Sequence record: AP019521.1
DNA length: 64,000 bases
Source of the DNA: Escherichia phage KIT01
Direction: 5' to 3' (one strand)
Below, in pieces: positions 6,269 through 53,700 of this stretch (position 1 is the first letter of the stretch; every line of letters starts with the position of its first letter). The position numbers and the translations under genes were made by a program. A model generated the notes under the pieces. That model ran no database searches and was not told the origin of the DNA. It saw only the letters and a program-made list of their open reading frames with translations.

Positions 6269-6823
6269 TTAATTCAATACATTAACCACTGCACTACGAG
6301 GTACTACACTAAAATCACCTGCATGGACAACGTTCAGAAGCTCAACACCATCTTCAACCCACTGGTCTGTTACCCAACCACAGATAGGATTATCGAAAGG
6401 ACGACGGATAGACACAGCAGCACACAGAAGGTCGGTAGGGTCTTGTTCTTCAACTTCTTGGAACAGGATTAACTCTGCTTCATAAACCAGGTTTTTCTCT
6501 ATTTTGTTATTATCTAACCGGCGACCGTGGATGACGTAAGATTCGGCAAACCAGTCACTTTTGGCAAATTCTTCAACAATAAATTCGCCTTCGCCAAAAA
6601 CATCAGTCAGGGTTTTATGGCCGGAAATCAAGGCCTTAGTTTTAATTTCAGGTTCAACCAGTTTGTAGGTTTTGCCGATTTCGATAGTCTGAGTAGTCAT
6701 AGTAGGTTCCTTAATTTCCAGTGGTTTAACAGGGCATACATAAGTGCTTAAAACATCAAAATCAAAATCAATCAGCTTAGCTGCAGGATTTGGAGTGTAT
6801 TTAGGGTTGTAATTAAATTTCAT
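6269..6823 (-). CDS. hypothetical protein, paralog B
   Basis: 184 aa; C-terminal CGWVTDQWVEDGVELLNVVHAGDFSVVPRSA parallels 5622..6191. Confidence 0.5.
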   Translation of the reverse strand: MKFNYNPKYTPNPAAKLIDFDFDVLSTYVCPVKPLEIKEPTMTTQTIEIGKTYKLVEPEIKTKALISGHKTLTDVFGEGEFIVEEFAKSDWFAESYVIHGRRLDNNKIEKNLVYEAELILFQEVEEQDPTDLLCAAVSIRRPFDNPICGWVTDQWVEDGVELLNVVHAGDFSVVPRSAVVNVLN

Positions 6824-7329
6824 ATTGTTCTCAATTCAATAAAATCTACGAGTTCGGCATGGGATTTGCGGAACATTACTTGGCGGCCACCGATGACAAC
6901 CTCATCTTCCGGTATTTCGTAAACAGCAAGATAGAATCCTTTAGAAGATAATTCAGCACGCTCTTCACGAGTGAACCAACGCATCATATCATACTCGCTG
7001 GCAAAAGCAAAATGGTAGAGGTTAACAAACCAACCTGGAATATAATCATCACAGCCTTCATAATCAGGCTGGTCCCACTTAGTTCTAATGCTTTTATTAG
7101 AATTTTCCACCAACAACTTGTCTTGACCTGGTAGTGGAATATTTTTATTATTGGTATGATGGTGTCTAAAATTAGGTCTGTCGAAACCTACTTCCAATAA
7201 CCAACCTTCACTCCATTCGTCAAATGAGCCTCTATACGGGGTTAATTGGCGGCATTGATGACGAGTGATTGCGATAACATCGCTGTTGTCTAGGATACTG
7301 AACGATGACTCCACTCGATAAATTTTCAT
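6820..7329 (-). CDS. hypothetical protein
   Basis: 169-aa ORF, GAGGAG SD, ATGA overlap with downstream gene. Confidence 0.45.
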   Translation of the reverse strand: MKIYRVESSFSILDNSDVIAITRHQCRQLTPYRGSFDEWSEGWLLEVGFDRPNFRHHHTNNKNIPLPGQDKLLVENSNKSIRTKWDQPDYEGCDDYIPGWFVNLYHFAFASEYDMMRWFTREERAELSSKGFYLAVYEIPEDEVVIGGRQVMFRKSHAELVDFIELRTI

Positions 7330-14260: not shown

Positions 14261-14782
14261 TTAATATCCTCGGTCTTGACGAGCAAAGTTCTCGGCATTT
14301 TTCAGATAATACAACTTAAAGATTTCTTCAGCAGTCAGACCAAGGCCTTGGAACATATTCAGAACAAAGTGCAGAATATCAATCATCTCGAATTTAATCT
14401 CGAGCTGGTCTTCAGGAGACAAATCGTTAATCAGGGTTTCACGACGTTCAGCATGTTGAGCTTTCCAAGGCTTCCATACTGCAGATGCATCTTTTTCACC
14501 ATTGCTCATACCGCCAAGAGAAGTCAGAAGTTCACGGAATTCGTCATCAATATAATCTTTCTGATTACGCAGCCAATCAACAACTTCACCTGCAGTGGCC
14601 AAATCATCAGGATGACGGTTATATTCAGGTTTATCTTTAGCCAAACGGACCTGTAATGATTTCTGCATATCAAGCATAACCTGCAGAGGGTCTTTATCTT
14701 CGTGAATCAGAGCATTAAAATAAGCTTCCTCAGCTTTATCAACACCTGCAATCAGTTGAGAACATTCATTAAAATGAGCCAT
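14261..14782 (-). CDS. 56: dCTP/dCDP pyrophosphatase (MazG-like)
   Basis: start at MAHFNEC as in T4 gp56; DPLQVMLDMQ, EIFKLYYLKN..ENFARQDRGY C-terminus matches T4. Confidence 0.85.
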   Translation of the reverse strand: MAHFNECSQLIAGVDKAEEAYFNALIHEDKDPLQVMLDMQKSLQVRLAKDKPEYNRHPDDLATAGEVVDWLRNQKDYIDDEFRELLTSLGGMSNGEKDASAVWKPWKAQHAERRETLINDLSPEDQLEIKFEMIDILHFVLNMFQGLGLTAEEIFKLYYLKNAENFARQDRGY

Positions 14783-14872
14783 TATATTTTTCCTTTTCAA
14801 TTCATTAGTAAGTTAGATAATTATAAACTGTCAGATTAAAGCGAATAAATAATAATTTAACAGGAGGATAAC

Positions 14873-15073
14873 ATGGGCAGTATTTTTTACCAAATCTGGA
14901 AATTGGCCGAAAAGAAAGACAAGAAAATGATGTTAGGTTTTCTTGCGCTAGACGTATTCCTTTGGAATCTTCTAGTAGTCCCTGTAGCCGCTAGCCAAGG
15001 GATAATTTTACCAGCGGTTACAATGGAACACGTGTTAAGCATAATTGGATTCTTTAGCGGAATTCCTGCCTAA
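14873..15073 (+). CDS. small hydrophobic protein (opposite strand)
   Basis: 66 aa; AGGAGG SD 5 nt before ATG; hydrophobic segments; convergent with gene 61. Confidence 0.4.
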   Translation: MGSIFYQIWKLAEKKDKKMMLGFLALDVFLWNLLVVPVAASQGIILPAVTMEHVLSIIGFFSGIPA

Positions 15074-16098
15074 ATTTTGGAATATTTCGAAAGTCTCATT
15101 TTAGCCATTAGACCTTGGGCTATATTAGCTTTCATATATGCCAGTACATCATTTATATCAGCTTTATCTTTCATAATCATATCATTTATATCTTTAGAAG
15201 GCCATGGAGCCTTGTCCCAGAATAGAACCCTTTCGCCGGCATCAACTAATCGTTGCATACGCTTAATTGTGTCAGGATGGCGGGGTTCATTGTCCATTAC
15301 CCAGGCGCGAGTTTCTTTACACGGAACCATAGCCAAGTCCAATGACCCACCGGTAATTGCTATTGCATTAGGTACGAATAATGAATCAATAGGACCCTCC
15401 ATTACCCATACCAACTGACGTTCGTCGACTGCATCCATTCCATATATTTTTGTAGCTTGGTCATGAGCTTTTATTGTAATATATTTTTGTGGAGCATCTT
15501 TACGTAAGGCTCGACCCTGGAAACTTTCTATTTGTTTATCCTTATTGAAAATAGGAATAACCAAACGTGGTTCAGGCATTTCTTTAGAATAGGTGCCCGG
15601 ATTCACAGAGTTAACTAATGCTGGCCATTCTTTAGTAAACCACAGCCGATTCCATTTATTTTCAGGAATGCAACGTAACGTCACATATTTGATAATAGGG
15701 TGGTCCTTTGGCATTCTATCTAATCGTTCACAGAAATTAAGCTTTTCGATGACGGGCATCTTAGCTTTAATTTTTTCAGATATCTCCACCTTAGGTGCAG
15801 CTTGTCTCCCGAACGATTGCTCTTTATGTTTCTCAAGAATATATTCGCGATATAAATCAGGCTCATATTCGTATAGATACTTCTTAATTCCTGCTGAATA
15901 ATCACAGTTAAAACAGTGCAGCATTACAGAGCCGTCATTAGCCGGATAGGCCCAAAAACGCGCTTTGTTCTCATCTTTTAGGGAGTCGCCACATACACGG
16001 CAACGACAGTTTAATTTAAAATCACTACCAGTTACTTGTCTGAATTTAGGTTGGTAATTCAAGGCACGTACAGCAAATTCTCTATCGACATATGACAT
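15070..16098 (-). CDS. 61: DNA primase
   Basis: 342 aa; zinc ribbon CRCRVCGD..HCFNCDY, Toprim region, C-terminus GLMAKMRLSKYSKI matches T4 gp61. Confidence 0.9.
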   Translation of the reverse strand: MSYVDREFAVRALNYQPKFRQVTGSDFKLNCRCRVCGDSLKDENKARFWAYPANDGSVMLHCFNCDYSAGIKKYLYEYEPDLYREYILEKHKEQSFGRQAAPKVEISEKIKAKMPVIEKLNFCERLDRMPKDHPIIKYVTLRCIPENKWNRLWFTKEWPALVNSVNPGTYSKEMPEPRLVIPIFNKDKQIESFQGRALRKDAPQKYITIKAHDQATKIYGMDAVDERQLVWVMEGPIDSLFVPNAIAITGGSLDLAMVPCKETRAWVMDNEPRHPDTIKRMQRLVDAGERVLFWDKAPWPSKDINDMIMKDKADINDVLAYMKANIAQGLMAKMRLSKYSKI

Positions 16099-17697: not shown

Positions 17698-17892
17698 TTA
17701 GATTTCCTTAATACGTGCATCATGTTCATAAACTTCTACGTCATCAACATAGGCCTTGACTAGAATGCCATTGATTTCAGCGAATTGAGTGGCCACCCAC
17801 ACAATATCATTTTCAGGTACTGAAGCTTCTTTGGTAGTGGTATCATCATTATTAAAACAGCATACAAATTCTACCTTAACCAATTTGGACAT
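17698..17892 (-). CDS. hypothetical protein, tandem paralog 2
   Basis: 64 aa; KLVKVEFVCCF...VKAYVDDVEVYEHD. Confidence 0.45.
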   Translation of the reverse strand: MSKLVKVEFVCCFNNDDTTTKEASVPENDIVWVATQFAEINGILVKAYVDDVEVYEHDARIKEI

Positions 17893-18222
17893 TTAGATTT
17901 CCTCACAGAAGGCCCATTCAGCATGATAAACCGTAGCGCCTTTAGTATCATTTAAACAAACCACGTCTACCGGAGCAATTACACGATAAAGACGAGGTTC
18001 TCCTCCCACTGAACGGGCTGCACGTCCAGCATAAATCTTAGCCAAACCGATATCTTCAGTAAAGAACACACGATTCAGGTTTTTCTTACGACCAGTTTCA
18101 GACAGAACTCCTGTCTCCTCAGGAGGACAAAGCATATTACCGATATTAGCAACACTACAACTTCCGTGGTAATACACTTTATATTCTGCTTTACAATCGA
18201 TGGTTTTCATTTTGTTCTCCAA
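17893..18222 (-). CDS. hypothetical protein
   Basis: 109-aa ORF behind early promoter cassette. Confidence 0.45.
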   Translation of the reverse strand: MENKMKTIDCKAEYKVYYHGSCSVANIGNMLCPPEETGVLSETGRKKNLNRVFFTEDIGLAKIYAGRAARSVGGEPRLYRVIAPVDVVCLNDTKGATVYHAEWAFCEEI

Positions 18223-32607: not shown

Positions 32608-32802
32608 TTAATCAAAGTATTCATAAACGAACCAGGCAGGGTTCCTGTTCGACATGATTCTATCATACTCTGACTTAAAAGCATTTCGGAGATAATCTTC
32701 AGTAACAAGATGTTCGTCTCCAGAGAAGTTATTAACTAAAACATACCGCTTTAGTTCAGGAACGGCCAACAAATGCTGGCCTGTTATAAAATTGGAAGCC
32801 AT
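32608..32802 (-). CDS. hypothetical protein
   Basis: 64-aa ORF. Confidence 0.4.
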   Translation of the reverse strand: MASNFITGQHLLAVPELKRYVLVNNFSGDEHLVTEDYLRNAFKSEYDRIMSNRNPAWFVYEYFD

Positions 32803-32845
32803 ATAAATATCTTTATCAGTCGCTGTATCAAATAAGGATTTGATA

Positions 32846-33562
32846 ATGAATTATAAATCAATATACGAAAAGCTTATTCAACGAGCAGTTAATAGAAATT
32901 TAACTACCTATAAAGAACGTCATCACATTATACCACAATGCATGGGTGGGACGGATGACGCTTTAAACTTGGTAGACTTAACACCTGAAGAACATTACTT
33001 GGCTCATCAGTTGTTAGTTAAAATCCATCCAGATAACGCATCGTTAGTCTACGCAGCAAGAATGATGACAGTTAGCTCACCAAAAGCTGATAGGTCTAAA
33101 AATAAATTATTTGGATGGCTTCGTCGTAAGAATTCAGAAGCCCAAAAGGATAAAGAATTCTCTGAAGAAACCAGAAAGAAAATGTCAATTTCTGCTTTAA
33201 AAAAGCCTAGAGTTACCTGTCCACACTGCGGCAAAACTGGATTGGTAGGCAATATGAACAGATGGCATTTCGATAACTGCCCTAAAGGCCCTAATAAAGT
33301 GGACCGCTCTATATCTGAAGAGCAAAAATTAAAAATAAAGAAAGGCCTAGAAAACATGGTCTATAAAATTGTGGAATGTGAATTCTGCGGCCTTTCAGGA
33401 AAATCCTGTGTTATTGCCTCTCATAAAGTTTTTTGTAAGAAAAATCCTAACGGGCGCAAAAAAACAGAAAAGAAGGTAGAATGCCCTCATTGTGGTAAAC
33501 AAGGGAATTCCGGTAATATGAATCGTTGGCATTTCGATAACTGTAAAATGAAGCCTCAATAA
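32846..33562 (+). CDS. free-standing HNH homing endonuclease with repeated zinc-finger modules
   Basis: ATG at 32846 after AAGGA; HNH core HHIIPQCMGGTDDALNLVDLTPEEHYLAHQ; three CxxC..C modules, two near-identical (CPHCGK.G..GNMNRWHFDNC). Confidence 0.8.
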   Translation: MNYKSIYEKLIQRAVNRNLTTYKERHHIIPQCMGGTDDALNLVDLTPEEHYLAHQLLVKIHPDNASLVYAARMMTVSSPKADRSKNKLFGWLRRKNSEAQKDKEFSEETRKKMSISALKKPRVTCPHCGKTGLVGNMNRWHFDNCPKGPNKVDRSISEEQKLKIKKGLENMVYKIVECEFCGLSGKSCVIASHKVFCKKNPNGRKKTEKKVECPHCGKQGNSGNMNRWHFDNCKMKPQ

Positions 33563-53352: not shown

Positions 53353-53700
53353 CTATTTGCCTTTCGGCCTTAACCGATAGCGATTACCAAAAGCTAAAGC
53401 TCTACGGTTAGTATTATTATTTATAGCTTTTTTAAGCTTACGACAATAAGAATAGAACACGTCGTTAAAATTATGCTCAACCCAATTCCTCTGTATAGGC
53501 GAGGTAATGGAAAGCATATAATGCGCTTTAATTAAATCCATCCCATTTTTATTAGGACATTCTTTATTATTAGCATTATATGTCGCTGCTACAACCTCTA
53601 TCTCTCTTTTGTAAGCCACATCATCCATGATAGGCGAAAGAACAATATAAGAAATGGCCACAGCGAACGCTAGAATTAAAATCTTTGAATTTAGGTCCAT
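53353..53700 (-). CDS. hypothetical membrane-anchored protein
   Basis: 115 aa with N-terminal hydrophobic segment. Confidence 0.4.
   Translation of the reverse strand: MDLNSKILILAFAVAISYIVLSPIMDDVAYKREIEVVAATYNANNKECPNKNGMDLIKAHYMLSITSPIQRNWVEHNFNDVFYSYCRKLKKAINNNTNRRALAFGNRYRLRPKGK

Follow-up and report, generated by a model that had tools for sequence, protein, structure and literature searches.

A small plus-strand gene convergent with the DNA primase gene of T-even phages: strong purifying selection and a predicted late membrane protein product

The window analysed here, a stretch of 64,000 nucleotides from Escherichia phage KIT01 (AP019521.1), belongs to a Dhakavirus, a JS98-like relative of T4, and in roughly its first 32.8 kb the long ORFs all have minus-strand orientation. 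Between genes 56 and 61 of this block lies a reading frame of 66 codons on the plus strand, which raises the question of whether it is a gene at all and, if so, what its product does. The original prediction had described a plus-strand ORF of 66 aa with AGGAGG 5 nt before its ATG, a stop overlapping the primase stop and surroundings that are uniformly minus-strand, and had considered an origin-associated peptide, a membrane-targeting peptide or a remnant of a rearrangement. The description is confirmed by the sequence, with 4 nt common to both stops and the uniform orientation holding for the long ORFs. The features of the locus are the following.

14873..15073 (plus), coding sequence of the predicted small membrane protein (66 aa, stop included), ATG at 14873 and stop TAA at 15071-15073; a phrog_2024 member; from the ORF list, a full-length phrog_2024 match and purifying selection
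14862..14867 (plus), Shine-Dalgarno (SD) sequence AGGAGG, with a 5-nt spacer, ATAAC, to the ATG; read from the sequence
14261..14783 (minus), gene 56, dCTPase, the divergent neighbour, ATG at 14783; from Pfam dUTPase_2 and annotated orthologues
15070..16098 (minus), gene 61, DNA primase (342 aa), the convergent neighbour; from annotated orthologues and tblastn
15070..15073 (both strands), 4-nt overlap CTAA of the convergent stops, the TAA of the ORF at 15071-15073 and the TAG of the primase at 15072-15070

Coding status, conservation and annotation of the gene

The gp61 of the window is 61% identical to that of T4 (tblastn), and the geometry of the stop overlap with the primase is the same in T4, RB18, Mosigvirus, Moonvirus and Gelderlandvirus. 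The SD sequence alone is not significant, because AGGAGG-N5-ATG, found once in the 64 kb, is expected 0.37 times by chance and was present at least once in 31 of 100 shuffles. It is conservation, not the SD sequence, that raises the ORF above chance. Homologous loci were identified by tblastn and from annotated records, and the 25 fetched loci together with the window gave 30 homologous copies, in all of which the plus-strand reading frame, and no other frame, is open. JS10 differs from the window by 13.5 synonymous and 2.5 non-synonymous changes (Nei-Gojobori; omega about 0.04, Fisher p = 4.6e-9), and in the comparison with the Marfa-type Klebsiella phages pN is 0.14 with pS saturated at 0.80 (Nei-Gojobori; p = 1.6e-15). 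The variable sites among Dhakaviruses number 6, 2 and 19 at codon positions 1, 2 and 3, respectively. These comparisons show that the ORF is a genuine protein-coding gene under strong purifying selection.

Conservation in relatives had been named in the original prediction as a check, and the frame is clearly kept across genera. Strong purifying selection together with this synteny refutes the suggestion of a rearrangement remnant. A chance ORF, or a remnant in decay, would agree with the shortness of the frame, with an SD motif that is not statistically significant by itself and with the absence of the gene from the reference annotation of T4, JS98 and JS10, but frame, length, start, SD sequence and promoter are all kept across genera and the phrog_2024 match has E = 5e-28, which leaves this explanation with a negligible probability. 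A 51-aa ORF in antisense orientation (14887-15042, minus strand) was also considered as a gene and rejected, since that frame holds 1-4 stops in the type-A relatives and is not conserved.

The window protein aligns to phrog_2024, a family of 'unknown function', with its residues 1-64 on positions 1-64 of the 65 in the profile (E = 4.8e-28), and the proteins of the window, T4 and Mexia all match it with E = 1e-24 to 1e-31. No second member of the family was found elsewhere in the 64-kb window. Convergence of the ORF with the primase gene was seen in at least seven Tevenvirinae genera or groups (Tequatro-, Mosig-, Dhaka-, Kanagawa-, Moon- and Gelderlandvirus and Klebsiella phages), and the homologues and sequence types are listed here.

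Dhakavirus, WG01 ORF29
Tequatrovirus, RB18, annotated 'similar to RB69ORF029w; RB32ORF030w'
T4, 17738-17938 (plus), 66 codons, overlapping the gene 61 stop by 4 nt, inside the 310-bp 'gap' from dam to gene 61
Kanagawavirus, ZX14
Moonvirus, Merlin
Gelderlandvirus, STP4-a
Klebsiella phages, Mexia and Marfa-type
Mosigvirus, type A and type B in tandem
Type A, MGxxFYQIWKL..., includes the window
Type B, MxxKLxxLxxAIKG..., includes T4
Type C, MSE...K-rich, Mexia, Merlin and STP4-a

The identity between types A and B is only 15-29%. In the family alignment W31, N32, P37, G43, P47 and G63 are invariant in all three types and A39 is found in at least 90% of the sequences; the core W-N-x4-P-x-A-x3-G-x3-P in a protein of 57-82 aa fits the window protein and is the same in the distant members. 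The tandem order in Mosigviruses is B-A in three loci (L016-L018, 1295-1701) and A-B in ESCO47 (L025, 1501-1894), and the type-A copy of locus L018 reads ATG TGA, with a nonsense codon at position 2. Outside the subfamily, the gene was absent beside the primase gene in five non-Tevenvirinae Straboviridae (Aeromonas phage 31, Acinetobacter phage Abraxas, two Pseudotevenviruses and one Krischvirus), and in four of the five, 7-14 nt separate gene 61 from the start of gene 56 or of another gene on the same strand. Because of its absence in these five phages, the cassette seems to have been inserted in the ancestor of the Tevenvirinae.

The stretch where gene 56 meets the small ORF (14784-14872 in the window, and its equivalents in relatives) is a hot spot of insertions: T4 has dam there, Mexia an HNH endonuclease gene, VR5/IME08 mobE, and ZX14, Merlin and the loci L042 and L043 a 94-aa ORF.

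In T4 the gene is without annotation in AF158101.6, NC_000866.4 and the 1984 record X01416, an auto-annotated T4 mutant genome does carry it as an annotated gene, and the RefSeq records of JS98 and JS10 omit it. A protein identical to that of the window is already in GenBank as 'hypothetical protein' (e.g. AND75974.1), and the phages include MX01 and IME540. The names for the family in databases are 'hypothetical' or 'uncharacterized', save for a few automatic 'holin' labels and obvious mislabels. The gene family is already catalogued, uncharacterised and missing from the T4 reference annotation. For the window protein, searches of Pfam and NCBIfam (E <= 10), PADLOC and the PDB (by sequence profile) gave zero matches, and a profile search of 1.84 billion representative proteins returned only 19 clusters, all of 33-82 aa and none annotated. 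Foldseek against BFVD found family members only, a literature search on the gene and the names of its homologues found no paper on it, and the region is unmentioned in a DksA RNA-seq paper.

Several labels at this locus seem wrong or automatic. The stretch is 99.2% identical to Escherichia phage 04086 and Salmonella phage SHP1, where it is labelled 'thymidylate synthase'. In dhaeg and dhabil the matched stretch twice bears the name 'dCTP pyrophosphatase', which UniRef also gives to the small ORF of IME341. Further labels of the small ORF are 'DNA packaging ATPase' (SAKp28), 'Holin' (OE5505) and 'putative holin' (KP1079).

Predicted late transcription and the neighbouring middle promoter

The intergenic region upstream of the ORF holds candidate promoter elements on both strands, and motifs of the late type recur elsewhere in the window.

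14844..14851 (plus), putative T4-type late promoter -10 element AATAAATA, the A(-13) variant of TATAAATA; from sequence and conservation
14857 (plus), predicted late transcription start with a leader of about 16 nt, by the rule that TATAAATA occupies -13 to -6
14820..14844 (minus), middle-promoter-like element for gene 56 with putative activity, from by-eye alignment with T4 X01416 1470-1560; MotA-box-like TCGCTTTA at 14844 to 14837, a 12-nt spacer and TATAAT at 14825 to 14820
3012 (minus), 14257 (minus), 16318 (minus), 32803 (plus), 42465 (minus), 53424 (minus), 57837 (plus) and 60501 (minus), further copies of ATAAATA, most of them just upstream of an SD sequence and ATG

In T4 late promoters TATAAATA spans -13 to -6 (PMC1524935). 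According to Geiduschek and Kassavetis, 32 of 50 T4 late sites are perfect and A(-13), present in 9 of the 50, is the commonest variant (PMC2988020), and Nolan et al. described T(-13) as poorly conserved in relatives (PMC1524935). Among the 22 distinct upstream regions of the homologues, TAAATA is located 12-22 nt before the ATG in every one, where chance would give 3.3, and 19 contain ATAAATA (1.4 expected); GGAGG with a spacer of 4-6 nt is again found in all 22, the remaining intergenic sequence varying between genera. In the 64-kb window ATAAATA is depleted approximately three-fold (9 found vs. 26 +/- 5 expected), and its other copies stand directly before lysozyme e, soc, gene 49 (which also has AATAAATA), 61.1 and other ORFs. 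The T4 homologue has the element GATAAATA at 17709-17716, and the -13 base, G in the T4 copy and C in Mosigviruses, represents rarer variants, which counts against a late promoter. The second copies in the tandem pairs are without a promoter of their own and start a few bases past the stop of the first copy. Matches to sigma-70 promoters were at chance level (5 vs. 3.3 expected), and T4 late promoters do not need a -35 element. The motif and its conserved position strongly suggest that the gene is transcribed late from its own gp55-type promoter AATAAATA, with a start near 14857.

Two further occurrences of the perfect motif were noted in the window. A second opposite-strand ORF (32802-33562, plus; 238 aa from the ATG at 32846) follows a perfect TATAAATA at 32802-32809; its only Pfam hits, to zinc ribbons, stay below threshold, and it could be a gene of mobile-endonuclease type. 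Another TATAAATA at 53424 (minus) lies 89 nt before a 97-aa ORF whose product starts MDIFRTAACILMAGCLSPTV... and is lipoprotein-signal-like.

Between the convergent genes we found no intrinsic terminator and no terminator-like hairpin, only trivial inverted repeats, so a late transcript must run antisense into the primase gene. This could mean that the functional product is a late antisense RNA that crosses the 3' part of the primase gene and opposes early read-through towards gene 56, so that both genes are shut off late, with the peptide being secondary. Such a role would fit the convergent arrangement with overlapping stops, the lack of a terminator in most genera and the observation that some sites of T4 give transcripts from each strand, at different times (PMC2988020). 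However, the amino-acid sequence is strongly constrained and the synonymous sites are saturated, a pattern that an RNA-only role would not give, and the distant members of the family are in co-directional operons without a primase gene. In addition, a stable GC-rich tetraloop hairpin separates the ORF from the primase gene in Mexia-type Klebsiella phages, indicating that antisense read-through is not a conserved requirement. We therefore consider the RNA explanation quite improbable.

The original prediction had also pointed to the proximity of oriA. On the minus strand, 14844 to 14820 is homologous to P(M)16.53 of T4, which makes the gene 56 transcript and the oriA primer (X01416 annotation). 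In the window the late element (plus) and this middle promoter (minus) are back-to-back with 1 nt in common, so the proximity is true for this phage, but the adjacency is not conserved: dam (780 bp) in T4, the HNH endonuclease gene in Mexia and mobE in VR5/IME08 come between the ORF and the P(M)16.53-type promoter. What the ORF is always linked to is the 3' end of the primase gene. An origin-associated element, with the ORF or its promoter being part of an oriA-type origin beside gene 56, would agree with the late element abutting the MotA box in this phage. Given the intervening genes in the relatives, the constant linkage with the primase end and a protein that is a hydrophobic membrane peptide without nucleic-acid-binding features, we find this explanation highly improbable. 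An origin-associated function is thus not supported; nothing was found that ties the protein to replication, and its function is probably not in DNA replication. In RB18, the late element is inside the spacer of the middle promoter.

Predicted membrane topology and the distant members of the family

The protein has one strong transmembrane (TM) segment, with a Kyte-Doolittle 19-residue mean of 2.05 at residues 20-38, flanked by five K/R on the N-terminal side and none on the C-terminal side, and it is hydrophobic to the last residue. The same pattern of hydropathy and charge is found in six divergent members. AF2 with the family alignment predicted, at moderate confidence (pLDDT 73), helices at residues 2-11, 14-41 and 51-62.

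14930..14995 (plus), predicted TM helix, codons 20-41, with W31-N32 and P37 invariant and A39 nearly so; from hydropathy and the AF2 helix 14-41
about 14999-15013 (plus), invariant G43 and P47 just past the helix; from the family alignment

The positive-inside rule places the N-terminus, with its basic flank, in the cytoplasm, and an N-in/C-out topology is predicted. The modelled C-terminal helix is short and cannot span the membrane. This second hydrophobic helix could instead re-enter the membrane, so the predicted topology is tentative. In the predicted topology the conserved W-N...P...G...P residues map to the outer half of the helix and the periplasmic loop. A conserved Asn within a TM helix typically mediates association between helices. 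The suggestion of a membrane-targeting or hydrophobic peptide in the original prediction is supported by the TM segment, the charge asymmetry and the AF2 helices.

A cleavable Sec signal peptide (P-x-A-x-(A/S) motif) was also considered. An A-x-A-like motif is present in some members (AAS in the window, AIA in T4) and is off-register elsewhere (AAF in P0077, SPW in P0083). As the register is not conserved and the hydrophobic stretch of about 21 residues is anchor-like, cleavage appears unlikely and was rejected.

None of the most distant phrog_2024 members (P0078 and P0081-P0085, with P0085 re-confirmed at E = 1.3e-9) is beside a primase gene. They follow an endonuclease VII gene, often with overlapping start and stop, and the module continues with proteins of about 180 and 105 aa, with a protein of about 95 aa having an N-terminal TM segment and a coiled coil nearby. 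The contigs carry the T4-type genes EndoVII, Cef and SegE, and MotA in DCP80. In four of the six non-syntenic contexts a T4 e-type lysozyme gene is 0.9-3.3 kb from the member, once in the same operon.

L033/L034, 0.9 kb, the same operon, headed by the member and ended by the lysozyme gene
DCP80, a cultured E. coli phage, 1.3 kb
L039, 1.5 kb
L040, 3.3 kb
PQ671644.1 (L044) 6792-6962, unannotated 57-aa member of DCP80, overlapping the endonuclease VII gene at its end, with the endolysin gene 1.3 kb downstream

In L037 and L038 there is no lysozyme gene within the flank examined. The member is the only protein of the DCP80 module to pass the TM threshold. In the window, lysozyme e is near 60.5 kb and not adjacent to the ORF, and in Tevenvirinae the distance from the gene to e is about 45 kb. 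The neighbourhood of the distant members points weakly to a lysis or envelope role. CTAAATA, a late-promoter variant described for Aeh1 (PMC1524935), is just upstream of the member in two distant contigs, and the distant members either carry CTAAATA or are coupled to late operons, which supports late expression as a probable family-wide trait.

The DCP80 record is classed as Gaprivervirus, and its module also holds a 1252-aa ORF. On a 2.2-kb metagenomic contig (L041, 129-1383) a 59-aa distant member is directly followed by a gene for a 352-aa product with a RelA_SpoT domain.

These observations raise the possibility of a small holin, pinholin or viroporin, in which TM helices oligomerise via the conserved Asn and depolarise or permeabilise the inner membrane late in infection, triggering or timing lysis. 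The likeness to small holins and pinholins such as phage 21 S68 (class II) is in size, in predicted late timing and in polar residues in the membrane helix, here the invariant Asn. Some databases label members 'holin', and an endolysin gene neighbours some distant members: the L033/L034 member heads an operon ending in the e-type lysozyme gene, and that of DCP80 is the only TM protein near the endolysin gene. Nevertheless, the labels are automatic, the window protein has its charges at the N-terminus instead of a charged hydrophilic C-terminal tail, it has one full-length TM segment and not two or three, no Pfam holin family is matched even at E <= 10, fold matches in BFVD are family members only, and L037 and L038 are without a nearby lysozyme gene. 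T4-type phages also depend on holin T, and t mutants do not lyse, so that the window protein is not needed as a holin in a phage having T. It is unlikely that the product is a holin itself.

Possible role of the gene and comparison with known systems

It is very likely that the gene encodes a late membrane protein. As a whole, we consider it probable that this is a conserved late accessory gene with an inner-membrane product. The gene would be a self-contained, oppositely oriented accessory cassette between the early genes 61 and 56, in all likelihood transcribed late as described above and translated efficiently from AGGAGG. The 7-kDa product would then insert in the inner membrane by one TM helix with the basic N-terminus in the cytoplasm, and approximately 25 C-terminal residues, including the short hydrophobic helix, would be at the periplasmic face; the pattern of hydropathy and charge common to six divergent members supports the membrane location. 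The clustering of W31-N32, P37, G43 and P47 in the outer half of the helix and the loop suggests that the protein may act through contacts between helices, whether by self-association or by binding another membrane protein. Its most likely role might be in modulating a late envelope event, for example lysis timing or membrane integrity, and the antisense run into the primase gene is regarded as a by-product.

A lysis or envelope role, taken separately, is somewhat doubtful: no homology to characterised proteins was found, and such a role relies on topology, timing and weak neighbourhood data. T4 moreover possesses a full set of known lysis proteins in T, RI, RIII and the spanins, which counts against it, as does the distance of about 45 kb to lysozyme e. 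Slightly less doubtful, although still tentative, is the broader reading that this is an overlooked, subfamily-wide late T-even gene whose 7-kDa membrane product is a new player in late envelope events. Under that reading the protein would, for example, modulate holin T triggering or lysis inhibition, or keep the membrane intact until lysis, and the existence of two ancient paralogue types would be explained by different partners to which they adapted.

Few viruses are as well annotated as T4, and yet its reference record is without this gene, which strong selection maintains in about a thousand sequenced relatives. The present analysis adds to the catalogued family the proof of selection, the conserved putative late promoter and SD sequence, a predicted topology, a phyletic boundary and a second genomic context. 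If tuning of lysis or membrane integrity is true, the classic T4 lysis and lysis-inhibition system would gain an extra component, which would be genetically easy to test. The practical value is modest and consists of an annotation correction for T4, JS98 and JS10.

The window gene is a member of the family phrog_2024 (RB69ORF029w/RB32ORF030w/RB55_p033/VR5_029), whose proteins are alike in having 60-70 aa, in being encoded convergently with gene 61 and in the W-N...P...G...P residues. The T-even envelope proteins RI antiholin, Imm and Sp (spackle) resemble the window protein in being short accessory proteins at the inner membrane or periplasm, although no similarity to its sequence was detected. 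Imm and Sp belong to the early genes and are encoded on the early strand, whereas the window gene is predicted to be late. Like morons, the window gene stands alone with a putative promoter of its own between two conserved genes, and these, 61 and 56, are directly adjacent in Krischvirus and Pseudotevenvirus. Unlike morons, the window gene is ancient and fixed throughout the subfamily, in most genera lacks its own terminator, and is found in a lytic and not a temperate phage. The T4 late genes soc, e and 49 are similar to the window gene in that, within an early block, a strong SD sequence and ATG follow a TATAAATA-type element at a distance of 12-31 nt. They are, however, encoded on the early (minus) strand, where early read-through reaches them as well, whereas the window gene is on the opposite strand to the early genes and would thus be expressed only from its own promoter. 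In contrast to soc, e and 49, its transcription is expected to collide head-on with that of the primase gene, and the gene appears to illustrate cleanly how a late cassette on the opposite strand is bound to run into primase transcription.
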